From Nanobdellota archaeon (GTDB lineage Archaea > Nanobdellota > Nanobdellia > SCGC-AAA011-G17 > JAGVZF01), in NCBI GenBank assembly GCA_038046405.1, contig JBBSWI010000008.1, positions 60,939 through 119,411 on the forward strand: a stretch of DNA of 58,473 bases. Direction: 5' to 3'. Made by a program: the position numbers and the translations under genes. The notes under the pieces are model-generated. The model ran no database searches. It saw only the letters and a program-made list of their open reading frames with translations, and was not told the DNA's origin. How positions within the stretch are numbered: the stretch's first letter is position 1; each line of letters starts with the position of its first letter. Shown here piece after piece: positions 5,124 through 45,008 of the stretch.

Positions 5124-5197
5124 GCCTCGGTAACTCAGCCTGGTAGAGTGCGGCTCTCATAAGGCCGTTGTCGTGGGTTCAAATCCCATCCGAGGCA
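5124..5197 (+). tRNA. tRNA with CAT anticodon (elongator Met or Ile2)
   Basis: Acceptor GCCTCGG/CCGAGGC; D-stem ACTC/GAGT; anticodon loop CTCATAA; T-arm GTGGG-TTCAAAT-CCCAT. Confidence 0.85.
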
Positions 5198-5337
5198 GTC
5201 GTTCCTTTTTCTCGACGATAAAAACCATGCTGTCGACGACGCTAGACATTGAACTAAGATTTCTATTGAATTTTATGGGTTGAGTTAAATGTTGTTGGGT
5301 GGCAAATCGCTAGGATTTCGAAAGGTTTAAATACTAG

Positions 5338-5353
5338 GTAAGACTTATCTTAC
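5338..5353 (+). promoter_or_regulatory. inverted repeat GTAAGA-CTTA-TCTTAC (putative antitoxin operator)
   Basis: Lies directly upstream of the SD (GGTGA) of the AbrB-type antitoxin. The same half-site recurs at 37436-37458 and 44140-44154. Confidence 0.35.
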
Positions 5354-5365
5354 TTGGTGATAAAA

Positions 5366-5635
5366 ATGGTAGAAATAAACATAACAAAAATGAGTTCAAA
5401 AGGACAAATTGTAATTCCTATAGAAATGAGAAAAGATTTTAGTATTAATGAGAGATTTATATTAATAAGAAATAGGGATCAGATAATACTGAAGAGAGCA
5501 ACAGATTTCAATAAAGAACTAGAAGAAGATTTGATATTTGCAAAGAAAACAGAAGAAGCGTTTAGAAGATATGAACGTGGTAAATCTAAGAAAAAGAGTG
5601 ATAAAGAATTTTTAGAAGAACTTAATAAATGGTGA
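5366..5635 (+). CDS. AbrB/SpoVT-family antitoxin
   Basis: MSSKGQIVIPIEMRK swapped-hairpin motif. Overlaps the toxin start (ATGGTGA). Confidence 0.8.
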   Translation: MVEINITKMSSKGQIVIPIEMRKDFSINERFILIRNRDQIILKRATDFNKELEEDLIFAKKTEEAFRRYERGKSKKKSDKEFLEELNKW

Positions 5636-5877
5636 CCATAAAATATGACGCTGTTTTTGAAAGAAACATAAAAAAGATAAAAGATGGGCTTTTAAAGCTA
5701 AAAGTTAAGAAGCAGATTGAGAAGATTGTTAAATCTCCAGAAATTGGTAAGCCCATGAAATTCGGTAGAAAAGGAACTAGAGAAGTATATATTCCGCCAT
5801 TCAGACTTTCTTATTCTTATATCAAAGAAGAAGACACAATAATATTCTTTGAATTATATCATAAAGACGAACAATAG
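5629..5877 (+). CDS. RelE/ParE-superfamily toxin
   Basis: 82 aa. ...GKPMKFGRKGTREVYIPPFRLSYSY..EDTIIFFELYHKDEQ matches the typical RelE/YafQ-like C-terminus. Translationally coupled to the antitoxin. Confidence 0.7.
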   Translation: MVTIKYDAVFERNIKKIKDGLLKLKVKKQIEKIVKSPEIGKPMKFGRKGTREVYIPPFRLSYSYIKEEDTIIFFELYHKDEQ

Positions 5878-6154
5878 AATTCTTTACAAAAATGAAACAA
5901 CTAAAAATTAAAAAAGAAATAGTATAACTTATTCTGTGACTATTGATTATTCTCAGAATAGTACTTACCTGTTTCCATAAAAAATGTTGAATTTAATTGA
6001 CAAAATAAAAGAGCGTGGCAACGGAATCTTGCCATGCAACCACAATAGCGTTAGCGTGAGTTTTCCTTTGCCAGGAGAACAAAAATGGAACACTCTGTCC
6101 ATAAAGTTGGCTTGAACATTCACTTAGAAGTAAAAGAAGAAGCAGATAAAATAT

Positions 6155-7335: not shown

Positions 7336-8627
7336 AGATTAACCCTGCATGAATAATAGCAGACCCTTTCTGGATAGACCGCTTTTTTACCCAGTTCTTC
7401 TTCTATCCTTAGTAATTGGTTATATTTCGATATTCTTTCGCCTCTTGAAGGAGCTCCTGCTTTTATCTGGCCAAAGCCCAGGCCGACTGACAAGTCTGCT
7501 ATGAATGAATCCTCTGTATCTCCGCTCCTATGGCTGATTATTACGTCCCAGCCATTTTTAATTGCGAGTTTCCCCGCATTTATCGCTTCTGTTAAAGTGC
7601 CTATCTGATTTAATTTTAATAATAGACAGTTGCATGAGTTTAATTTTATGGCTTTTTTAATCCTCTCAATGTTTGTTACTAGCAAATCATCGCCGATTAC
7701 AGTAACTCCAGTCCCAAATTCAACAAACTTCTTGAATTCAAGGAATTTGTCCTGCTCAAAAGGATCTTCCAAAGCAATTATCGGATATTCTTCAATTAAG
7801 CTTTTGTACAATCCAAATAATTGATTTAATGAATAACATTTCCCTTCAATGCAATATTGTTTCTTGCCTCTAATTTTTTTGTACAAACTAGAGGCAGCTA
7901 CATCGATTGCTATATTGACATTTTTTTCATATCCAAGCTCTTCTATTGCTTTCATCATTAAATCCAAAGGCTCCTTTACACTTTTCAAGTTTGGAGCGAA
8001 ACCACCTTCATCCCCCAGATTTATGGAAAACTTTCCATGTTTTTTTATTATAACCTGCTTCAATGTATGGTATATTTCAGAGCCCATTCTTAACGATTCT
8101 GAATAGTTCTTTGCAATAGGCACTATAAGATATTCCTGAAAGTCCAGAGCATTTCCTGCATGCATTCCGCCATTTATCACATTCATGAAGGGAACTGGAA
8201 CCACATAATTCCTGTTATCAGAAATTTTTGCTATGTATTCATAAAGCTTCAGGCCCTGACAAATTGCAGAGGTTCTTGCGCAGGCCATGCTCACTCCCAG
8301 GATTGCGTTGGCGCCGAGTTTCTTTTTATTTTTTGTGCCGTCCAATTTAACCATTAAACTGTCAATAAAGTCCTGGTCTTCTATGTTTTTTCCTGTTAAT
8401 TTTTTTCTTATTACTGTGTTTACATTGTTGACCGCTTTTTTCACCCCTAGCCCTAGATATCTTTTATTGTTGTCACGCAATTCAAAGGCCTCATACCTCC
8501 CTTTAGAAGCGCCGCTAGGAACTATGGCAGAAGACTTGCAGTAATTAGTTGAAACTTCTACTTCTATTGTAGGATTGCCCCTAGAGTCAAGAACCTCCCT
8601 TGCTTTAATATCCTTTATTTTGTTCAT
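7332..8627 (-). CDS. eno: enolase
   Basis: IKAREVLDSRGNPTIEVEV and the SHRSGDTEDSFIADLSVG signature. Confidence 0.95.
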   Translation of the reverse strand: MNKIKDIKAREVLDSRGNPTIEVEVSTNYCKSSAIVPSGASKGRYEAFELRDNNKRYLGLGVKKAVNNVNTVIRKKLTGKNIEDQDFIDSLMVKLDGTKNKKKLGANAILGVSMACARTSAICQGLKLYEYIAKISDNRNYVVPVPFMNVINGGMHAGNALDFQEYLIVPIAKNYSESLRMGSEIYHTLKQVIIKKHGKFSINLGDEGGFAPNLKSVKEPLDLMMKAIEELGYEKNVNIAIDVAASSLYKKIRGKKQYCIEGKCYSLNQLFGLYKSLIEEYPIIALEDPFEQDKFLEFKKFVEFGTGVTVIGDDLLVTNIERIKKAIKLNSCNCLLLKLNQIGTLTEAINAGKLAIKNGWDVIISHRSGDTEDSFIADLSVGLGFGQIKAGAPSRGERISKYNQLLRIEEELGKKAVYPERVCYYSCRVNL

Positions 8628-35519: not shown

Positions 35520-36356
35520 ATGATGCAAGAAAAAAACCTAAAAACTTTTGACGGGATGAATGTAAAATATTGGGTTTTAAAACAAAAAACAGGCAAGCCA
35601 TCATTATTCTTCATACATGGCTTGGGTGGAAATTCTACAGCTTGGACAAATATCATTAAAATAATGTCCAAAAACGGATTCTCTACAACTAAAATAGACT
35701 TAAGGGGCCATGGAAAAAGCGACAAACCTCTTAAGAAAACTTATTATTCTATAGACAACATGGCCAGGGATGTTTATGACATAATCAAGAATGAGAAACT
35801 AAAGAATGTTGTTTTTGTAGTGCACTCCTTTGGTGGATATGTGGCTTATAGGTATATAGCTAGGAACTACAGCGAAATAAAAAAAGTAGTTTTATGCAAT
35901 TCACCCCATACAAAGCCATTTAAGTACAGCCCAAGTTTTTTGCTGAGAAAATTCTACTGGGTAATGCTGCCCTTTATATGGGTTATATCCAAATCCATTT
36001 TTTATGACAACAGAAATTATGAATATCCCATTTACTCAGATTTAAAGGAGCTTTCTGAATTCAAACTAATACTAAAAGACATTTCAGGAATGCCATTTAA
36101 AGTTTATCTCTGGAACTACATGCTGCTTTTTAAAAATAATTCAGACATAGAAAAAATTTCAAAAATGAAAATTCCATTTTTGCTCATAACTTCTTACGAG
36201 GATTCATTCCTGTCTTACAAGTCTTTGGAAGAATTGTCAAAGATGTTAAAAAACTCAAAACTGAGAATAATCAAGGGCTGCGACCACGAAACTATACTAA
36301 GAAAGCCTAAAGAGGTTTCTGAATATATACTGAACTTCCTCAAAAAAACTGGTTAA
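35520..36356 (+). CDS. alpha/beta hydrolase
   Basis: FFIHGLGGNSTAW oxyanion region, nucleophile elbow VVHSFGG, C-terminal ..GCDHE. Confidence 0.85.
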   Translation: MMQEKNLKTFDGMNVKYWVLKQKTGKPSLFFIHGLGGNSTAWTNIIKIMSKNGFSTTKIDLRGHGKSDKPLKKTYYSIDNMARDVYDIIKNEKLKNVVFVVHSFGGYVAYRYIARNYSEIKKVVLCNSPHTKPFKYSPSFLLRKFYWVMLPFIWVISKSIFYDNRNYEYPIYSDLKELSEFKLILKDISGMPFKVYLWNYMLLFKNNSDIEKISKMKIPFLLITSYEDSFLSYKSLEELSKMLKNSKLRIIKGCDHETILRKPKEVSEYILNFLKKTG

Positions 36357-36388: not shown

Positions 36389-36486
36389 GCTCCCGTAGTG
36401 TAGTCCGGTCAAATTAATTTAAAAATTAAGACTAAGCACTAGGGCTTCTCGAGCCTTCGACCCGGGTTCAAATCCCGGCGGGAGCA
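36389..36486 (+). tRNA. tRNA-Glu (anticodon CTC) with a D-loop intron
   Basis: Acceptor GCTCCCG/CGGGAGC; D-arm GTGT-AGTCCGGTCAA...GCAC; anticodon loop TTCTCGA; T-arm CCGGG-TTCAAAT-CCCGG. 98 nt in total, 75 nt after removing 23 nt. Confidence 0.8.
36413..36435 (+). other. 23-nt D-loop intron of tRNA-Glu
   Basis: BHB layout: central helix GGUC/GACU, bulge AAA, inner helix UUAAUU/AAUUAA with loop UAAA, second bulge AA(G). Same position and architecture as in tRNA-Gln. Confidence 0.7.
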
Positions 36487-36520
36487 AAATAATAGAATTT
36501 TAGTGCCTAAAACAGGTTTC

Positions 36521-36541
36521 ATGCACCCGTAAAGGGTGCAT
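36521..36541 (+). other. perfect 8-bp hairpin ATGCACCC-GTAAA-GGGTGCAT, 35 nt after tRNA-Glu
   Basis: Seen directly. Function unknown (possibly a terminator or recombination site). Confidence 0.3.
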
Positions 36542-36631
36542 GATTTTATGTTCAATTTAGAAAAATTTTTATGGAGAAAGCATAGATGGTGGGACTGAAT
36601 AAATAACTTAAAAAGGAAAAGTTTTTATACT

Positions 36632-36663
36632 AGTTTAACTATTTAATAGTTTAACAGTTAAAC
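36632..36663 (+). promoter_or_regulatory. AGTTTAAC direct repeat plus perfect inverted repeat GTTTAAC-A-GTTAAAC (putative operator of cassette 1)
   Basis: Lies 15-45 nt upstream of the ATG at 36678, just downstream of a TTTTTATA box. Confidence 0.4.
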
Positions 36664-36677
36664 GGAGATAAAACAAT

Positions 36678-36941
36678 ATGGCAGAACAAGAAATAGTCAA
36701 AATGAGCCCTAAAGGACAATTAGTAGTCCCCCAAAATATAAGAAAACTTGAAAAATTTAAGACTGGGGACAGATTTGTACCGGTACAAGTAGAAGGCGGC
36801 GTATTATTTAAGAAATTAGAAATACCAGATGTTAGACTAGAATTTGATAGATTGGTAAAAGAACTAAGGGGTCATGTAAAGAGACAAAATATTACTCGCA
36901 ATGATGTGTCAGAGGCGATTAAATGGGCAAGAAAAGGATAG
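36678..36941 (+). CDS. AbrB/SpoVT-family antitoxin (cassette 1)
   Basis: MSPKGQLVVPQNIRK motif. Overlaps the downstream PIN gene. Confidence 0.8.
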   Translation: MAEQEIVKMSPKGQLVVPQNIRKLEKFKTGDRFVPVQVEGGVLFKKLEIPDVRLEFDRLVKELRGHVKRQNITRNDVSEAIKWARKG

Positions 36942-37342
36942 TTTTAGATACTAATATACTAATCTCTGCATTTGGCTGGAAAGGAAACCCTTATAGGATT
37001 CTAAATTTAGTAATAGACCAAAACTTTGAATTAATTATATCGCAGAAACAAATAGAAGAACTAAGAAGAGTTTTAACTTATCCCAGATTAAAAATTACTC
37101 AAGAACAACAATCTAGATTCTTAAATCTTGTTCTTAATATCGCTATTGTCGTAAAAACAAATGATAGATTAAATATAATAAAAGAAGATCCATCTGACAA
37201 TATTATTCTAGAGTCGGCAGCAGATAATGATGTAGAATATCTAATCTCTGGCAATAAACATTTGTTAAAACTTAAGAAATTTGAAAATGTTAAAATTATG
37301 ACTGCTGCCCAATTTCTAAGTTTCATTAAAGATAAATTTTAA
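36923..37342 (+). CDS. PIN-domain toxin (PIN_3-like; cassette 1)
   Basis: IVLDTNILISAF..., ...EDPSDNIILESA..., ...YLISGNKHLL acidic PIN residues. Confidence 0.8.
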   Translation: MGKKRIVLDTNILISAFGWKGNPYRILNLVIDQNFELIISQKQIEELRRVLTYPRLKITQEQQSRFLNLVLNIAIVVKTNDRLNIIKEDPSDNIILESAADNDVEYLISGNKHLLKLKKFENVKIMTAAQFLSFIKDKF

Positions 37343-37435
37343 CCTGATTATGGTATTACAATGAAACGTCCTGAATTTACGAAGCTTTTAATGGAGAAGA
37401 TTGCTACAATTGGACTGAAATAGAAACCTTTATAA

Positions 37436-37458
37436 GTAAGATAATCTTACTATCTTAC
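37436..37458 (+). promoter_or_regulatory. inverted repeat GTAAGAT-A-ATCTTAC plus an extra ATCTTAC half-site (putative operator of cassette 2)
   Basis: Immediately upstream of the GGAGGT SD and the ATG at 37476. Confidence 0.4.
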
Positions 37459-37475
37459 TAATGGAGGTATTAAAA

Positions 37476-37745
37476 ATGGATGTTGAAATAACAAAAATGA
37501 GTTCAAAAGGACAGATTGTAATTCCTCAAAATACTAGAAAAGAGATTAATGCAAATGAAGGAACTATGTTTGCAATAACTGCAGAGAAAGATACAATAAT
37601 ACTAAAGAAAATAAAAACTCCTTCAAGAGAAATGTTAATGCAAGAATTAAGAGAAATAGCAAAAGAAGGAAGAAAAAGGCTAGAGAAGAAAGGGGTTAAG
37701 GAATCTGACATTCAAAGGATTATAGAAAAAAGAAGGCTGAAGTAA
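37476..37745 (+). CDS. AbrB/SpoVT-family antitoxin (cassette 2)
   Basis: MSSKGQIVIPQNTRK. The start was chosen 7 nt after GGAGGT. Confidence 0.8.
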   Translation: MDVEITKMSSKGQIVIPQNTRKEINANEGTMFAITAEKDTIILKKIKTPSREMLMQELREIAKEGRKRLEKKGVKESDIQRIIEKRRLK

Positions 37746-38150
37746 ATGAATGTAGTTTTTGATACAAATGTATTAATATCTAGTACTCTATGGGACAAGA
37801 GTGTTTCTCAGAAACTACTCTTTAAACTTATAGATTCTGACATCAAAATCTATACTTCTAAAGAAATCATTCAAGAATATTCAAAAGTTATAAATAGAGA
37901 TTTTTATTATTCGCAAGAGGAAATCAGTAGAGTAACAAATACATTATTACCACTCTTAACTAACATAAGCCCTATAGAAAAATTAAATGTTATTAAAGAA
38001 GATCCTGATGACAATAAAATAATTGAATGTGCAATTGCTTCAAAATCAGATTATATAATAACTTATGATAAACATTTACTTAAACTACAAAAATTTAGAG
38101 ATATTATTATAATAAAACCAGAAGAAGCATTAAAAATATTTAAATTATGA
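37746..38150 (+). CDS. PIN-domain toxin (cassette 2)
   Basis: VVFDTNVLISS..., EDPDDNKIIECA..., YIITYDKHLL. Confidence 0.8.
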   Translation: MNVVFDTNVLISSTLWDKSVSQKLLFKLIDSDIKIYTSKEIIQEYSKVINRDFYYSQEEISRVTNTLLPLLTNISPIEKLNVIKEDPDDNKIIECAIASKSDYIITYDKHLLKLQKFRDIIIIKPEEALKIFKL

Positions 38151-38166
38151 GTTAAAAATAGTATTA

Positions 38167-38197
38167 TTCAAATCCCCAGCTAGTCCCGCCGGGAGCA
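38167..38197 (+). repeat. composite scar of the tRNA-Glu 3' end
   Basis: TTCAAATCCC (T-loop plus 3 nt of stem), then CAGCTAGT, then CCCGCCGGGAGCA (T-stem 3' strand plus acceptor, 12/13 identical to the tRNA). Confidence 0.7.
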
Positions 38198-38244
38198 ACT
38201 TTTATTATATATTTTGTAGTATATAATATACTTCTGTTTATTTT

Positions 38245-39012
38245 TTAGCTCTTTGCTATATCCCATAAAATATTAAAATAACTCAAAAATGATCTTGATG
38301 TTTCTAAGTCTTCTATCACTATTACAATAGGCTCTTCTTTCCTTATAAGTATCACTACTTTTTCTTTATGTATCAATATCTCTGATGGTGTAGCCTCATA
38401 TAAAAATTTCCTATCATACTTTTTTCCCAATTTTTTTTCAATACGTTCAACGTAGGCTTTGGAAGATTCATCAAAGATAATCTTTGTTTTCACGCCTTTC
38501 TTTAAAGCTAATTTGCTATACCTAAGAAAAAATCTTTCGAGTCTTTCTTCATTACTAGAAGCTCCTGCCCCCAAAATGTAAGCTTTGTCGTTCTTATGGC
38601 AATTAGAGACTAGATCTAAGTACACAGTTTCCATCCCTTTCCATCCGATGAATACCCCTACTTTTGTTTCTTTGACTTTCTTGTTTTTTATCGTGTTTAA
38701 TTTAGGAAGTAAGTTATCTAAAAGTTCTTGGTTTTTCATTATTTCTTCTTTCTTTTTGTCTAGGTAATCTTTAATCCTTAAGGGAGGAGCCGGTGAAAAA
38801 TGTTTTACGTTATTTTTTGTTATAATGCTGACTAAACCTTTTTCTATAAGTTTGTCTATGACATAGTATAACTTAGATGGCGCTGTCTTGGACTCCTTCA
38901 GGATACTGCCTTTACTAGAGATTCCTATTTTTAACAAAGCAACATATACCTTAATCTCCGAATTAGTTAGGCCTATATTTCTAAGAATTTGATAGTCTAC
39001 TTCATTTACCAT
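38245..39012 (-). CDS. TrmB-like winged-helix regulator with an uncharacterised C-terminal domain
   Basis: N-terminus LTNSEIKVYVALLKIGISSKGSILKESKTAPSKLYYVIDKLIEKGLV. Paralog of 53117-53866. Confidence 0.7.
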   Translation of the reverse strand: MVNEVDYQILRNIGLTNSEIKVYVALLKIGISSKGSILKESKTAPSKLYYVIDKLIEKGLVSIITKNNVKHFSPAPPLRIKDYLDKKKEEIMKNQELLDNLLPKLNTIKNKKVKETKVGVFIGWKGMETVYLDLVSNCHKNDKAYILGAGASSNEERLERFFLRYSKLALKKGVKTKIIFDESSKAYVERIEKKLGKKYDRKFLYEATPSEILIHKEKVVILIRKEEPIVIVIEDLETSRSFLSYFNILWDIAKS

Positions 39013-39080
39013 ATAGGCCCTACCAATGGGGGAGCTTATATTTAAATATTTCTTTTTAGGCTAATCATTTAGTAGTAAAA

Positions 39081-39545
39081 ATGGTAAACCTAGAAGTGTT
39101 AAACATCAAACTAAGAAAATGCAAAAGGGAAGACGTCGGATTTGTATATGAGTTGATGAGGTATTACTTGGCTGATTTTTTTAATAATTACACTAAAGAA
39201 GGGTGGTCAAGAGACTTATTTAAAGAAAAATTTGATAGTAATAGAGTTACGATTATTGAGCATGAGGATATGCCTATAGGTTTTGTAGATTATGAAGTAA
39301 TAAACAACGAAATTTATATACATAATTGCAATATATCCCATGATTATCAGGGATTAGGAATTGGTTCTTATATAGTTAAGACAATCGAAGATATAGCTTT
39401 ATCTAAAGGTATTAAAAATTTAAGAAGTAAGATATTTATAAAAAATCAAAAATCCATGGCTTTTGCTTTTAAAAACGGATTTGTTATTTGTGATAAATCC
39501 ACTGAAGAAGATTCGTATATAGTTAAAAAAATCCTAAATATATAA
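39081..39545 (+). CDS. GNAT family N-acetyltransferase
   Basis: HDYQGLGIGSYIVKTIEDIALSKG acetyl-CoA motif A. Confidence 0.8.
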   Translation: MVNLEVLNIKLRKCKREDVGFVYELMRYYLADFFNNYTKEGWSRDLFKEKFDSNRVTIIEHEDMPIGFVDYEVINNEIYIHNCNISHDYQGLGIGSYIVKTIEDIALSKGIKNLRSKIFIKNQKSMAFAFKNGFVICDKSTEEDSYIVKKILNI

Positions 39546-39549
39546 AAAA

Positions 39550-40230
39550 ATGGAAAGCATCGGAGTCAATTCTAAATATTTTAATAGTATATCCCTATTT
39601 TTTGTAGCGTTTCTTATGATATCTAATACAGTGGCAGTCAAATTAATAAGCATTGGCCCCTTTATATTCACAGGAGCCATCATTATTTTTCCAATTACAT
39701 ACATATTTGGTGATATACTTACAGAAGTTTACGGTTATAGACGTTCCAGAAAAATAATATGGGGCGGTTTTATTGCAATATTGTTTATGTCTTTTATTTA
39801 CTGGATTGTCGGCCTTCTTCCATCTGCCCCGTCTTGGCAAAATCAACCTGCTTATGACTCTATTTTAGGACTTGTACCCAGAATAGTTATTGCGTCGCTA
39901 ATTGGATACTGGGCAGGCGAGTTTTCTAACTCTTTTGTATTAGCTAAATTTAAAATTATAACAAAAGGCAGATATCTTTGGACAAGAACTATAAGTTCTA
40001 CTCTAATTGGGGAAGGAATAGATACAGTACTATTTGTACTAATTGGATTCTTTGGTATAATTCCAAATAGTTTATTGCCAGTAGTTATTCTTTCTGGCTA
40101 CATGTTTAAAGTGCTTTATGAAGTAATAGCAACTCCAATAACCTATAAAATAGTTAAATTCCTAAAAAAAGCTGAGGGGTATGATCATTTTGATTATAAT
40201 ACAAACTTTAATCCATTCATGATAAAATAA
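39550..40230 (+). CDS. yhhQ: queuosine-precursor (preQ0/preQ1) transporter, YhhQ/VUT (DUF165) family
   Basis: FPITYIFGDILTEVYGYRRSRKIIWGGF motif, 6 TM. Confidence 0.75.
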   Translation: MESIGVNSKYFNSISLFFVAFLMISNTVAVKLISIGPFIFTGAIIIFPITYIFGDILTEVYGYRRSRKIIWGGFIAILFMSFIYWIVGLLPSAPSWQNQPAYDSILGLVPRIVIASLIGYWAGEFSNSFVLAKFKIITKGRYLWTRTISSTLIGEGIDTVLFVLIGFFGIIPNSLLPVVILSGYMFKVLYEVIATPITYKIVKFLKKAEGYDHFDYNTNFNPFMIK

Positions 40231-40286
40231 AGATAGAATTTTAAGAGTCTGTCTATATATCTTGAAGGTTCCTCACAGAACTCTTT

Positions 40287-40433
40287 TTATTTTCTTAATT
40301 TAACAAAAATCAGATTGCCTTCAGAAGTCACATCTACATCAAACTCATCGCCTTGCTGCAAGCTTGCTCTTTTTATCTTTTCAATTGGTATTGTGATAAA
40401 ATGATTGCCTTTATAGGTTTGTAATTTTACCAT
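40287..40433 (-). CDS. orphan AbrB/SpoVT-like small protein (48 aa)
   Basis: MVKLQTYKGNHFITIPIEKIKRASLQQGDEFDVDVTSEGNLIFVKLRK. Below the ORF-track size cutoff. Confidence 0.45.
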   Translation of the reverse strand: MVKLQTYKGNHFITIPIEKIKRASLQQGDEFDVDVTSEGNLIFVKLRK

Positions 40434-40518
40434 ACAAAAGACATTTATATAACCACTAATTTATAAATTTTATATATCGGAATGACTAAACTTACCTGAT
40501 AAGTTGTAGGGCATATAT

Positions 40519-40537
40519 AATGCTCGGCGGGAGCATT
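40519..40537 (+). repeat. third partial copy of the tRNA-Glu 3' end (CTCGGCGGGAGCA, 12/13) embedded in the hairpin AATGCTC-GGCGG-GAGCATT
   Basis: A G+C-rich 11-nt exact match (CGGCGGGAGCA) to the tRNA-Glu acceptor end, in AT-rich surroundings. Confidence 0.5.
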
Positions 40538-40621
40538 ATTTAGAGCAACCTTGATGCCTCTTGCGTTATACAACAACCTAAAATAAAATTTATACTAATC
40601 AATCGATTTAAACATTATAAA

Positions 40622-41671
40622 TCAGTCTTTTAATAAAGAATCAAGTTGTTTTATATGTTTAGAAAGATAAAAAGTGAAATCAGTAGCTTTTTTGTGGTAA
40701 CTTGGTATTTGTTCTGAACCCATAGGTAGGGTAAACCCTTTGAATGTTTTTGTTAACGTTTCCCCTTTCTTTAATAGGTCTTCTTCTATGAAACCTTTTT
40801 CTCTATCATACATTGTATAGATTTTTGGCATATTACCAAAAAAGAAATTAAAATGTTCATTATTGCTTAGGAGAGGAGACGACCTAAATAAAATATACAC
40901 TGCTGCAGATATGGTGTTCAATATATCTTGATCGTTCGATATTACCCTCACATTTCTGTTTTCTGCTATGCCCTCAAATAGCACCGTTGAAGCCAATTCT
41001 ATGTCTGTGTCTTCATCATAATTATGGTTCTCTTTTCTAACATCAAAGAAGTCTGCTAGATCCTTAAAGAAATCTTTGATTAAAAAGTAAGGTACACTTT
41101 TTAAATTTTCAGAATATTCTTTATCTGGCAACATGCTTTTAAGCCTCGTTATACTTTCTTTATATCTTAATAGCGAATTATAAATTTGATAGTTTTCGTC
41201 TCTACCCCTATTTAATATAGCATTAAACTGTGTGAATAAGAAGTTTTGCCCCCTCCATTCTATATTCTGAACATTGTTTTGAATCTGCTTTTTCACCTGT
41301 TTTATAACACCTGTGGTTATCTTAGAATCTTTGATACTATCGAGAAGATCATTAGTAAATTCCGATGACATTATTGCTCTCTCTAAATCTGATGTGGGAA
41401 TGTCTATGTTTCCAGACAAATTCTTTTCAGGGTCAGCACCAGAACCAGATTTTCTTCTGTCGAGATGATTTTTATAAATACTCCATTGTTCACTAGGCCA
41501 AAGTATATTTGTGTCTAGGAAGGTGATAGTATTACGCGAATATAGAAGTTCTAATTTGTTGGCTTCAACTTGCTCAACAGAAGATTCTATTCCTTCATTA
41601 GCTTTAATTTCTTCAGATGTAGGTTGCTGTTCTTCTCCATCTTTTTCTCTATCCTGATCACAATCGGTCAT
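40622..41671 (-). CDS. large atypical PIN-like domain protein with an acidic N-terminus and a long helical insert
   Basis: ITFLDTNILW, DEDTDIELASTVLF and RVISNDQDIL are spaced like the PIN catalytic acidic residues but separated by about 170 aa. Confidence 0.45.
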   Translation of the reverse strand: MTDCDQDREKDGEEQQPTSEEIKANEGIESSVEQVEANKLELLYSRNTITFLDTNILWPSEQWSIYKNHLDRRKSGSGADPEKNLSGNIDIPTSDLERAIMSSEFTNDLLDSIKDSKITTGVIKQVKKQIQNNVQNIEWRGQNFLFTQFNAILNRGRDENYQIYNSLLRYKESITRLKSMLPDKEYSENLKSVPYFLIKDFFKDLADFFDVRKENHNYDEDTDIELASTVLFEGIAENRNVRVISNDQDILNTISAAVYILFRSSPLLSNNEHFNFFFGNMPKIYTMYDREKGFIEEDLLKKGETLTKTFKGFTLPMGSEQIPSYHKKATDFTFYLSKHIKQLDSLLKD

Positions 41672-41761
41672 CTTTATAATGCCTGCAGGTAAATTTTTAA
41701 AGCTTTTTATTTAAAAAATTTTAGATTGATTGTAATTTGTGAAAGGTAAGCGGCTGAAAAA

Positions 41762-42889
41762 TTATGTATCTGAACTTCTAATCTGACTCCAGGAATTATC
41801 TTTAACCGAATTTCTTATTATTTCTGCAGCTTTTAATGCAGATTCTGGATTTGCCAATACACTTGCATTATTCTTCATCAGCATAAGCCTTTTGTTGTTT
41901 TTAATAAGATCGTAGATGATTTGCTTTAAGTGTTCTAGTGATTTTACTTTTATAGCGACATCTTTTGAGATTAGATAAGCGGTGTTTTTCTCTTCTATTC
42001 CTGGCAAAGGATTTGTAATGATTAAGGGATGCCTTATTGCAAGTAACTCTGAAGAAGTTAAGCCACCCGGTTTGGTAATAACAATATCTGCAATCCTGTA
42101 AACCTCATCTATGTCTTCCGTATATTCAAAAACTTTTATGCCAGGAAATTTTTTCTCTAGTTTTTCTTTTAGGGTTTTATTATTGCCAATACTAATTATT
42201 ATCTCAAAATCATTTTTTATGGTATTTATTATCTTCTCGTAATAGCCAAGCCCCGCACCACCCCCTAACACAAGAATCGTGGTTTTGTCACTTAGCTTGT
42301 ACTTTCTCCTTAAAACATGTTTGTCTTTCTTTACAGAAAATTCAGGATCTATAGGCACTCCTGTGATAAATATCTTTTTATTCAGATGACTCATCCTTTC
42401 TTCAATTTCTTTGTTTGGCACTAGAATTATGTCGGCATTGGTCCTTAAATGATATGACATCAAATCAAAATCCGTTACGACATAAACCAATGGTACATTT
42501 ATCCTTAATTTTGATATTGCAGTGCATGGAAACGCATGAGTGCAAACGATAATATCCGGGCTGCATTTTTTTAGGATTATACTAAATTTTCTTTTATAGT
42601 ATGAATAAACCAAAATTTCTAATGGCATTAATACTTTTAATATGGAATTTTCATATTTATAAAGCAACCTAAGCACGGCTGGAATTGTTTTGAGCAATGA
42701 CAGTCTTACATATTTTAATATCCTTTCAAAATTGGTTGTGCTCTCATATAATGCATTTAATGTTGTTACTTCTACATCTTTGTATAGCCGTCTTAATGAC
42801 TTTTCTATCGCCTGAGCTGATCTCTTGTGACCATAACCAAGAGCGGCAGTGTATAGTATAAGCACTTTCATTATGGAATTAAGATTCAC
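41762..42889 (-). CDS. GT28-family glycosyltransferase (MGDG synthase / UgtP-like)
   Basis: MKVLILYTAALGYGHKRSAQAI N-terminus and C-terminal ...ITKPGGLTSSELLA. Confidence 0.75.
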   Translation of the reverse strand: MNLNSIMKVLILYTAALGYGHKRSAQAIEKSLRRLYKDVEVTTLNALYESTTNFERILKYVRLSLLKTIPAVLRLLYKYENSILKVLMPLEILVYSYYKRKFSIILKKCSPDIIVCTHAFPCTAISKLRINVPLVYVVTDFDLMSYHLRTNADIILVPNKEIEERMSHLNKKIFITGVPIDPEFSVKKDKHVLRRKYKLSDKTTILVLGGGAGLGYYEKIINTIKNDFEIIISIGNNKTLKEKLEKKFPGIKVFEYTEDIDEVYRIADIVITKPGGLTSSELLAIRHPLIITNPLPGIEEKNTAYLISKDVAIKVKSLEHLKQIIYDLIKNNKRLMLMKNNASVLANPESALKAAEIIRNSVKDNSWSQIRSSDT

Positions 42890-44022: not shown

Positions 44023-44108
44023 GGGCCCATGGTCTAGTGGCTATGAAGAAATTAGCAAACACTGCTCTCACTCAGCAGAGATCGAGAGTTCGAATCTCTC
44101 TGGGCCCA
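44023..44108 (+). tRNA. tRNA-Val (anticodon CAC) with a 13-nt D-arm intron
   Basis: Acceptor GGGCCCA/TGGGCCC; anticodon stem CTGCT/AGCAG; loop CTCACTC (unusual U37); T-arm GAGAG-TTCGAAT-CTCTC. 86 nt in total, 73 nt after intron removal. Confidence 0.7.
44046..44058 (+). other. 13-nt intron in the D-stem 3' strand of tRNA-Val (about position 23/24, +/-1-2 nt)
   Basis: Relaxed BHB: outer helix GUG/CAC, central helix GCUA/UAGC, bulge AAA on the 3' side, no inner helix. Confidence 0.55.
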
Positions 44109-44132: not shown

Positions 44133-44158
44133 AAGATATGTCTTACTTATAAGATATG
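44133..44158 (+). promoter_or_regulatory. AAGATATG direct repeat flanking TCTTA-CTTA-TAAGA inverted repeat (putative operator of cassette 3; overlaps the ATG)
   Basis: ATTTATATA box at 44123-44131, about 25 nt upstream of the ATG at 44156, suggests a leaderless transcript. Confidence 0.35.
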
Positions 44159-44437
44159 GTTGTATTAAAGACACCTAGGAAAGAGAGTATAGAATTAGGT
44201 ACTATTAGCTCTAGAGGACAAATAGCTATACCTTCTAATATTAGAAATGAAATGGATTTAAAAGAAGGTGAAAAAGTATTGTTCTTATTATCTGGAGATA
44301 CTTTACTAGTAAAAAAAGTAACATCAAAAACATTTTCACATATTACCAAACCTCTAAAAGAAGAAGCCAGAAGAGTTGGTTTTAAAGAAAGTGAAGTCCC
44401 AAAAATTATAGCTGGGGTTAGAGCAAAGAAAAGATGA
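44156..44437 (+). CDS. AbrB/SpoVT-family antitoxin (cassette 3)
   Basis: ISSRGQIAIPSNIRNEM motif. Overlaps the PIN start (ATGA). Confidence 0.8.
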   Translation: MVVLKTPRKESIELGTISSRGQIAIPSNIRNEMDLKEGEKVLFLLSGDTLLVKKVTSKTFSHITKPLKEEARRVGFKESEVPKIIAGVRAKKR

Positions 44438-44844
44438 AAATTACAGTAGATACTAATGTCTTAGTATCGGCTACTTTCTGGTATGGTGACTCAAATAAAA
44501 TAATAGAAATGGTTGAAAATAAAAAAATTGTATTAATTCTTTCTAGACCAATACTGGAAGAGTATGTAGAAGTAATAAATTCAGAAGATGTTCAATCAAA
44601 AATAAAAAATAAGAAACTTATTTTTAAATATAGTACAGAAAGTCTAAACGCTTTAGCTGAAATTATTAACATAAAGTCTAAAATTAACATAGTAAAAGAA
44701 GATCCAGATGATAATAAAATTTTAGAATGTGCATTTGATGGCAGAGTAGACTATATTATAAGTAAAGATAATCATCTATTAAAATTAAAAGAATTTAGAG
44801 GTATAAAAATTATAAAACCAGAAGAAGCATTAGTATTATTTTAA
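44434..44844 (+). CDS. PIN-domain toxin (cassette 3)
   Basis: ITVDTNVLVSA..., EDPDDNKILECA..., YIISKDNHLL. Confidence 0.8.
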   Translation: MKITVDTNVLVSATFWYGDSNKIIEMVENKKIVLILSRPILEEYVEVINSEDVQSKIKNKKLIFKYSTESLNALAEIINIKSKINIVKEDPDDNKILECAFDGRVDYIISKDNHLLKLKEFRGIKIIKPEEALVLF

Positions 44845-44915: not shown

Positions 44916-44946
44916 TTCGAATCTCTAGCCATGTTCTCTGGGCCCA
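44916..44946 (+). repeat. composite scar of the tRNA-Val 3' end
   Basis: TTCGAATCTCT, then AGCCATG, then TTCTCTGGGCCCA (12/13 identical to T-stem 3' strand plus acceptor). Confidence 0.7.
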
Positions 44947-45008
44947 TATTTTAATAGAAAAATTTAATAATGCCTGATTATTCTTATATTTGAAAGAGGT
45001 GATTATGA

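Follow-up and report, generated by a model that had tools for sequence, protein, structure and literature searches.

The window analysed here is a stretch of 58,473 nucleotides (nt), C8:60939-119411, from the genome of a small groundwater archaeon of the Woesearchaeota (G000; 931 kb in 40 contigs, 35% GC; C-numbers denote its contigs). It contains a tRNA-Glu(CUC) gene and, directly 3' of it, an array of two segments of small genes (segment 1, 36487-38166; segment 2, 38198-40524), with a partial copy of the tRNA 3' end between the segments and another at the outer end. A preliminary description of this DNA had seen in the array nested, integrase-less insertions into the tRNA; its contents and its probable origin are the subject of this account. 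Further assemblies of the same organism come from samples of groundwater well H43, and three other genomes are used for comparison: G001, a same-genus relative (sister species), G002, from another genus, and G004, from a third.

The tRNA-Glu(CUC) gene lies at 36389-36486 on the forward strand. Uncut, it was called by neither ARAGORN nor Rfam, and the ARAGORN intron options mis-fold it. It carries an insert of around 23 nt in the D-loop (about 36413-36435), and once some 21-25 nt are taken out there ARAGORN reports tRNA-Glu(ctc), bearing out the earlier claim of an intact tRNA ending at 36486. The target gene is whole and the inserted DNA begins at 36487. The G001 orthologue is 84% identical and has the same D-loop insert (L039, ~7861-7884). 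An insert at this position is also seen in another genus of the family (L022) and in the tRNA-Glu(UUC) of a distant Nanoarchaeota single cell (L053, 5802-5898), and is absent in G004. The last 13-15 nt of the gene, TCCCGGCGGGAGCA, form a putative attachment (att) core, and the tRNA 3' end can therefore be regarded as the attL of the array.

That the tRNA 3' end recurs twice downstream was upheld by a repeat search, in which the three copies form a single family of direct repeats, 1711 and 2338 nt apart. Copy 2 (38167-38197, forward strand; TTCAAATCCC + CAGCTAGT + CCCGCCGGGAGCA) is bipartite, being the 20-nt tRNA 3' end interrupted by 11 inserted nt and differing at one position; its part at 38185-38197 is 12/13 identical to the tRNA. 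It begins 16 nt past a PIN stop codon, at the junction of the AbrB-PIN type element or elements with segment 2. Copy 3 (40523-40535, forward strand; CTCGGCGGGAGCA) is also 12/13 identical, is enclosed by a 7-bp hairpin (40519-40537) and forms the outer boundary of the array. Each segment thus has putative att copies at both of its ends. The GC content is 0.28 for segment 1 and 0.30 for segment 2, against 0.35 for the flanks and the genome.

Segment 1 had been described as two tandem AbrB-PIN cassettes, and family matches confirm both. In cassette 1 (36678-37342, forward strand) the gene for an AbrB-like antitoxin (36678-36941; TIGR01439, E=0.004) overlaps that for a PIN_3 toxin (36923-37342; E=9e-19). 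In cassette 2 (37461-38150, forward strand) the gene for an antitoxin of AbrB/MazE fold (37461-37745; MazE_antitoxin, E=6e-7) abuts that for its PIN_3 toxin (37746-38150; E=1e-19). Both fit the layout of VapBC-type type II toxin-antitoxin systems, in which a small AbrB/SpoVT-fold antitoxin gene is followed by a PIN toxin gene. A recent tandem duplication was considered and rejected: the AbrB proteins of the two pairs are 31% identical and the PIN proteins 36%, and the pairs are therefore separate acquisitions. The nearest relatives of cassette 2 are a cassette on C38 and another in the window at 44156-44844.

No intact integrase gene lies within 36487-40535. The preliminary description had gone further and recognised no integrase remnant in any frame, which holds for segment 2, where none was detected, but not for segment 1, where the final ~20 codons (~60 nt) of an integrase gene stand ahead of each AbrB-PIN pair. 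Remnant 2 (37362-37423, forward strand; RPEFTKLLMEKIATIGLK*) was found genome-wide by nhmmer with a profile of four integrase tails (E=4.1e-9). The DNA around it (37360-37525) matches the tail-AbrB junction at C38:2244-2420 (blastn, 78% over 178 nt, E=3e-33), and 37382-37427 aligns at 85% with the C7 integrase gene at its 3' end (blastn); at the protein level tblastn gives just E=0.5, so that DNA comparison and the tail profile are needed to see it. Remnant 1 (36548-36606, forward strand, in the same orientation as the tRNA; ..FRKIFMEKA*MVGLNK*) was placed by alignment, and its core, MEKA*MVGLNK*, lies at 36571-36606. A peptide pattern from this remnant, picked post hoc, matches only the three intact integrases of G000, the integrase tail on C38 (a 76-amino-acid ORF) and remnant 1 itself. 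Both remnants have the position and orientation expected for an original order of tRNA, integrase gene (int), AbrB and PIN.

Between the tRNA and remnant 1 lies a junction patch of 56 nt with two hairpins (36487-36542). A second assembly, GCA_964358805.1, is 99.92% identical to G000 over 16.8 kb, and 10 of the 13 differences fall inside this patch, the differing tract starting at the first base past the tRNA. One hairpin is remodelled by the changes; in the other they alter the loop and leave the stem intact. The divergence looks like an imported recombination tract or a mixture of strains.

The content of segment 2 was likewise confirmed. It opens with a left arm (38198-38227, forward strand; CTTTT..TATATATTTTGTAGTATATA) that is shared with the other tRNA-Glu gene of the genome: positions 38184-38225, comprising copy 2 and 30 nt after it, are 88.6% identical over 44 nt to the 3' end and flank of tRNA-Glu(UUC). 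The motif TATATTTTGTA occurs five times in the G000 genome, three of them directly after att copies. The cargo (38245-40230) comprises genes for a TrmB-like regulator (38245-39012, reverse strand) and a GNAT protein (39081-39545, forward strand), both assigned by family search, and for a YhhQ-type queuosine-precursor transporter (Vut_1/YhhQ; 39550-40230, forward strand; TIGR00697). A collinear TrmB-GNAT-YhhQ block stands directly 3' of tRNA-Met in G004 (69% nucleotide identity; 81% amino acid identity for YhhQ), preceded by a motif resembling the segment-2 left arm. The right arm (40286-40522, reverse strand) consists of a 48-amino-acid, weakly AbrB-like gene (40287-40433) and its upstream region. 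Over 246 nt, positions 40291-40535 share 88.6% identity with the first right arm of the tRNA-Glu(UUC) island (C8:7362-7607); with the syntenic copy in G001 the right arm shares 72.7%. Among 151 genomes of the order, close copies of the 48-amino-acid gene were found solely in this genus, the contexts of more distant matches being uninformative, and the right-arm pattern was not found in metagenome contigs.

The sister species provides the comparison with a relative lacking the insert that had been proposed as a check. Its orthologous site was located by a DNA search with the tRNA, synteny of the upstream hydrolase having given none at the level of the order. G001 is collinear with the window on both flanks and lacks 36487-40285, while the right arm and its copy are kept. 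The G001 order is tRNA-Glu(CUC), ~900 nt of unrelated small genes, a homologue of the 48-amino-acid AbrB-like gene, GCTCGGCGGTAGCA as the counterpart of copy 3, and then a glycosyltransferase gene that corresponds to 41762-42889 of the window. When the right arms of the window, the tRNA-Glu(UUC) locus and G001 are aligned, all similarity ends directly after the copy. Also absent from G001 is the region that abuts copy 3 in the window (40536-41805), a G000-specific 1.27 kb with a reverse-strand open reading frame (ORF) of 349 amino acids (40622-41671); no second repeat bounds this region. The ORF has no match in Pfam, NCBIfam or PHROG, and contains the PIN-like motifs FLDTNIL and ISNDQDIL. On the other side, an alpha/beta hydrolase gene (35520-36356) just 5' of tRNA-Glu(CUC) is absent in G001, which has a 108-amino-acid ORF of membrane-like appearance instead; the 5' side of the tRNA therefore also varies.

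Parallel arrays are found at other tRNA genes. The tRNA-Glu(UUC) gene (C8:4606-4680) has a 3' end identical to that of tRNA-Glu(CUC) and is followed by a double-Lrp regulator, a B12/radical-SAM gene, a 45-amino-acid AbrB-like gene, a copy of the tRNA end, a MazE-PemK pair and a further copy, with homology to G001 resuming ~45 nt past the last copy. Its first segment shares the 30-nt left arm and the 246-nt right arm with segment 2. The regulators and the cargo of the two are unrelated, so that the idea of a regulator common to both was rejected. The tRNA-Glu(UUC) regulator is homologous to one on C21, a contig that also carries a RelE/ParE pair and a nucleotidyltransferase-HEPN pair, each flanked by copies; in G002 a nucleotidyltransferase-HEPN pair stands directly after tRNA-Glu(CUC). 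In the window itself, tRNA-Val(CAC) (44023-44108), which contains a small insert, has a single AbrB-PIN pair (44156-44844) and then a bipartite copy (44917-44947) behind it. The corresponding slot in G001 has the same tRNA, the same first ~24 nt after it and a bipartite copy, with a ParE-type pair in place of AbrB-PIN. A slot at tRNA-Met (window 5124-5877) holds an AbrB-type antitoxin gene (5354-5635) and an 82-amino-acid ORF (5629-5877) labelled RelE-like from a reading of its sequence alone; no copy of the tRNA 3' end (9-11 nt, at most one mismatch) was found downstream.

The copies are of two forms. The bipartite scars (window 38167-38197 and 44917-44947; L039 11702-11733; L007, that is C38, 5137-5176 on the reverse strand) all carry the 11-nt insertion at one and the same point of the 20-nt tRNA end, within the T-stem 3' strand, and their spacers are alike (AGCYAKGT) though the tRNA-derived parts differ; the C38 scar consists of two tandem units. 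The simple scars (window 40522-40535; L006 4095-4108 and 4732-4745; L039 9069-9082) all read GCTCGGCGG(G/T)AGCA, an alternative reading being a fusion of the first 4 nt of the tRNA with the last 10, which would form a mini acceptor-stem hairpin. An inverted motif related to the bipartite scars follows tRNA-Met in G004 (L129, ~6115-6135).

A search for integrases elsewhere in the genome, as had been advised, was productive. G000 encodes a XerA-like protein, three intact integrases of 405-426 amino acids (on C7, C35 and C38) and several fragments. The family is one of Xer-like tyrosine integrases with a C-terminal zinc ribbon, and the nearest solved structures are those of XerA. On C7 and C35 a tRNA on the same strand lies immediately ahead of int, and a helix-turn-helix (HTH)-nucleotidyltransferase toxin-antitoxin gene lies behind it. 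On C38 an AbrB-PIN pair follows an 80-amino-acid copy of the integrase C-terminus; the AbiEii pair of C30 stands behind an integrase gene that is N-truncated and frameshifted; and C22 has a 45-amino-acid integrase piece. As judged from these sequences, the intact genes, the C30 copy, the C38 tail and the C22 piece form a decay series. All three intact genes lie less than 2 kb from a contig end (C7 1-1937, C35 1-1652, C38 1-1786), and the breaks of C7 and C35 both fall in the same HTH-nucleotidyltransferase gene, so that the assembly is fragmented by repeated elements. Behind the C38 integrase gene, other assemblies have genes for an RHS toxin that ends in a ribonuclease tip and for Barstar, and the island that holds the C38 integrase and the AbrB-PIN pair also has an IS200/IS605-type Y1 transposase gene (L007, 3823-4245).

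Relatives of these integrases come from Woesearchaeota/Nanoarchaeota metagenome-assembled genomes; they are encoded, at 36-68% identity, at 61 loci in other genomes, and none was found in viral contigs. At 35 of the 61 loci ARAGORN places the end of a tRNA a short distance upstream of int, both on the same strand. In the intact layout int shares its strand with the tRNA, starts 70-330 nt after it, and is followed by a toxin-antitoxin pair or other small cargo and then by a 12-15 bp copy of the T-stem/acceptor 3' strand of the tRNA. At one locus, L053 (a Nanoarchaeota single-cell genome), tRNA-Glu(UUC) is followed by an intact int, an AbrB gene (63% identical to the C38 copy) and a PIN gene (56%); this is what segment 1 looked like when intact. 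At another, L099, tRNA-Glu(CUC) is followed by a frameshifted int, a restriction-modification gene and repeats of 15 and 13 nt from the T-stem/acceptor 3' strand, the portion of the tRNA of which the window also has copies.

Taken together, the locus is very likely a tandem accretion of decayed tRNA-targeting integrative elements at a tRNA-Glu(CUC) hotspot. Since just 3' integrase remnants are left, and none in segment 2, the locus is classed here as decayed remains and not as a functional element. The earlier proposal of serial site-specific integration at the tRNA 3' end is supported by the breakpoints at the copies, the parallel array and the intact relatives elsewhere; the description of the insertions as nested is not, and they are tandem instead, copy 2 being a hybrid junction. 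Its bipartite part resembles the right arm found after the tRNA-Val AbrB-PIN pair and it is joined to the left arm shared with tRNA-Glu(UUC), which is the form predicted when a new element integrates into the attL of a resident one. Breakpoints, repeats, remnants, intact relatives and the absence of the insert from G001 are the observed foundation of this model.

The following history is proposed. An element of the segment-2 type, with a left arm containing TATATTTTGTAG and a right arm made up of the 48-amino-acid AbrB-like gene and the core, would have integrated first. Its right arm, which is shared with G001, would therefore be the oldest part of the array, already present before the two sister species separated, and segment 1 the most recent. 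One or two int-AbrB-PIN elements would later have entered at the tRNA, pushing segment 2 outward and creating the hybrid copy 2. The integrase gene would have been whole upon integration, as in the lambda/pNOB8 paradigm. Deletions would then have cut each integrase gene to its last ~20 codons, the second probably also taking the att copy between the two pairs, and the addictive toxin-antitoxin genes would have been retained with their promoters. We infer the order of these events, the earlier att function of the copies and addiction as the cause of retention. The similarity of the right arms, the swap at tRNA-Val and the 56-nt tract would fit either continuing att exchange or homologous recombination between related elements.

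Several points weigh against this reconstruction. Neither tRNA-Glu gene has an intact integrase beside it and none of the three intact ones can be assigned to tRNA-Glu; no integrase remnant was detected in segment 2, and no trace of one in the tRNA-Glu(UUC) island. Remnant 1 escaped nhmmer with the integrase-tail profile and depends on a weak pattern chosen post hoc. The two AbrB-PIN pairs are not separated by an att copy, and an extra deletion must be assumed. The att cores are short (12-15 nt) and putative, and a downstream att repeat within ~6 kb was absent in 30 of 31 foreign integrase loci, L099 being the exception; the att core of the family is therefore defined by few cases. The 11-nt insertion of the bipartite copies is not accounted for by accretion. 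Finally, GCA_964358805.1 has the same array structure as G000, and there is therefore no sign of current excision.

Two explanations would deny the copies any link with integration into the tRNA. It is highly improbable that they are chance matches or functional hairpins, terminator-like and unrelated to the tRNA. The count of a 10-mer of the tRNA 3' end is weak by itself, with 4 matches against 0.93 expected and 3 of 100 shuffles reaching the same number, and copy 3 does lie in a 7-bp hairpin. The claim that such copies are unlikely by chance was, however, sustained by a genome-wide test, in which the last 12 nt of each of 36 tRNAs (the covariance-model calls in G000) were sought with at most one mismatch within 8 kb, on both strands and both sides. 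Seven copies were found downstream on the same strand, belonging to 4 of the 36 tRNAs, and none upstream, downstream in reverse or upstream in reverse; the copies are therefore not chance matches. Further, homology between independent loci stops at the copies, the change in the G001 copy weakens the hairpin and yet keeps the tRNA-like sequence, and no T-run follows the copy-3 hairpin. That the copies are pieces of other tRNA genes, either pseudogenes or Nanoarchaeum-like split halves, can be given next to no credence. The lineage has many unusual insert-bearing tRNA genes and copy 2 covers the tRNA from T-loop to discriminator base, but no covariance-model match was found at either copy (Rfam, E<=1) or in a genome-wide RF00005 search, so that this refuting case from the preliminary description did not materialise; nor is there a 5' half, an anticodon arm or a complementary leader, and the start of copy 2 so close behind the PIN stop codon also speaks against it.

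The remaining alternatives accept the att copies and differ on what has since happened to the array. It is possible, if unlikely, that integrase-less cassettes with conserved arms are still excised, exchanged and re-integrated in trans by intact integrases, in the manner of cis-mobilizable elements (CIMEs), satellites or integron cassettes; this would add to accretion and does not exclude it. Segment 2 and the first tRNA-Glu(UUC) segment have conserved arms and different cargo, and their right arms are closer to each other within G000 (88.6%) than those at the orthologous sites of the two species (72.7%). The ends of the tRNA-Val slot are kept while its content is AbrB-PIN in G000 and a ParE-type pair in G001, the single toxin-antitoxin pairs of C21 leave no room for an integrase between their att copies, and the 56-nt divergent tract begins at the first base past the tRNA in an otherwise near-identical assembly. 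Against this, the two assemblies are structurally identical, the right arm is not found outside the genus, the integrase remnants of segment 1 point to decay in place, and homologous recombination between tandem or paralogous elements could also produce conserved arms with varied cargo. A stronger form, in which a living DPANN cassette system swaps integrase-less units between tRNA slots by means of a few intact Xer-like integrases, the 48-amino-acid AbrB-like protein and the bipartite att sites being part of the recombination site or its control, is doubtful. It is similarly rather improbable that the att copies are ancient scars, the differences in content having arisen by homologous or illegitimate recombination and deletion in a fast-evolving tRNA flank. 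The outer copy and right arm are as old as the genus, the left breakpoint of the tRNA-Val slot lies ~24 nt past the tRNA end and not at the core, and the hydrolase and 349-amino-acid ORF regions differ from G001 without any repeats; yet several breakpoints fall exactly at copies, integrase tails stand ahead of the cassettes, and tandem site-specific integration would be expected to give a hybrid such as copy 2.

With tandem accretion as the preferred explanation, the array is similar to CIMEs. In ICESt1-type islands of Streptococcus, CIMEs have lost the integration genes and kept attL and attR, and a later element that enters an att site belonging to one already resident gives a tandem array at a tRNA 3' end (PMC5704250). 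The present array likewise lacks integration genes, has putative att copies at its ends, is arranged in tandem at a tRNA 3' end and belongs to a setting in which decayed elements predominate. It differs in that the host is an archaeon (DPANN), that there are no conjugation genes anywhere and that the units are tiny (0.8-2.3 kb), mostly single toxin-antitoxin pairs; any mobilisation in cis or trans would be hypothetical here. In the tycheposon islands of Prochlorococcus, tRNA-targeting elements with tyrosine recombinases integrate serially, newer ones pushing older ones inward (bioRxiv 10.1101/2020.12.28.424599). There too partial tRNA copies lie between neighbours, and fragmented integrases and scattered partial tRNAs mark older events; the integrase family and host domain are different, and in the present case toxin-antitoxin cargo is dominant and no replication or packaging modules were seen.

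Among archaeal elements, those of type II (the pNOB8/lambda paradigm) keep the integrase intact, target tRNAs and integrate in tandem, and later loss of the integrase has been described (PMC8371274). The elements discussed here agree in having a whole int on integration, a tRNA target, a tandem array and integrase loss, and differ in the Xer-like integrase with its C-terminal zinc ribbon and in the bipartite att copies with an 11-nt insertion. In SSV-type elements ('suicidal', type I) integration splits int into N- and C-terminal parts at the ends of the element (PMC7253208, PMC8371274). Short integrase fragments beside a tRNA-derived att site recall that arrangement, but the Woesearchaeota family has whole int genes beside tRNAs, and the fragments in the array are solely 3' tails of varying length, which argues for deletion and not partition. 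Gene partition of the SSV type was accordingly rejected on the whole int found 3' of a tRNA on C7, on C35 and at 35 of 61 foreign loci, and on the XerA proteins being the nearest structures. An integron was also rejected, as there is no integrase at the array and the repeats are tRNA-derived direct repeats and not attC hairpins.

The array is thus a genomic island at a tRNA end of a well-known kind, here in a little-studied lineage, and it reveals no new mechanism. Mobile elements of DPANN archaea are poorly charted; a 2021 review of archaeal tyrosine recombinases has no occurrence of DPANN, Woesearchaeota or Nanoarchaeota (PMC8371274). The Xer-like integrase family, with its fixed tRNA-to-int layout, is widespread in Woesearchaeota and carries minimal payloads, mostly toxin-antitoxin pairs. 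Decay of its elements leads to ordered cassette arrays at tRNA genes that differ between sister species, which gives a simple rule for locating the variable regions of these tiny genomes and explains part of their toxin-antitoxin load, while the queuosine-precursor transporter of segment 2 is possibly an adaptive passenger.

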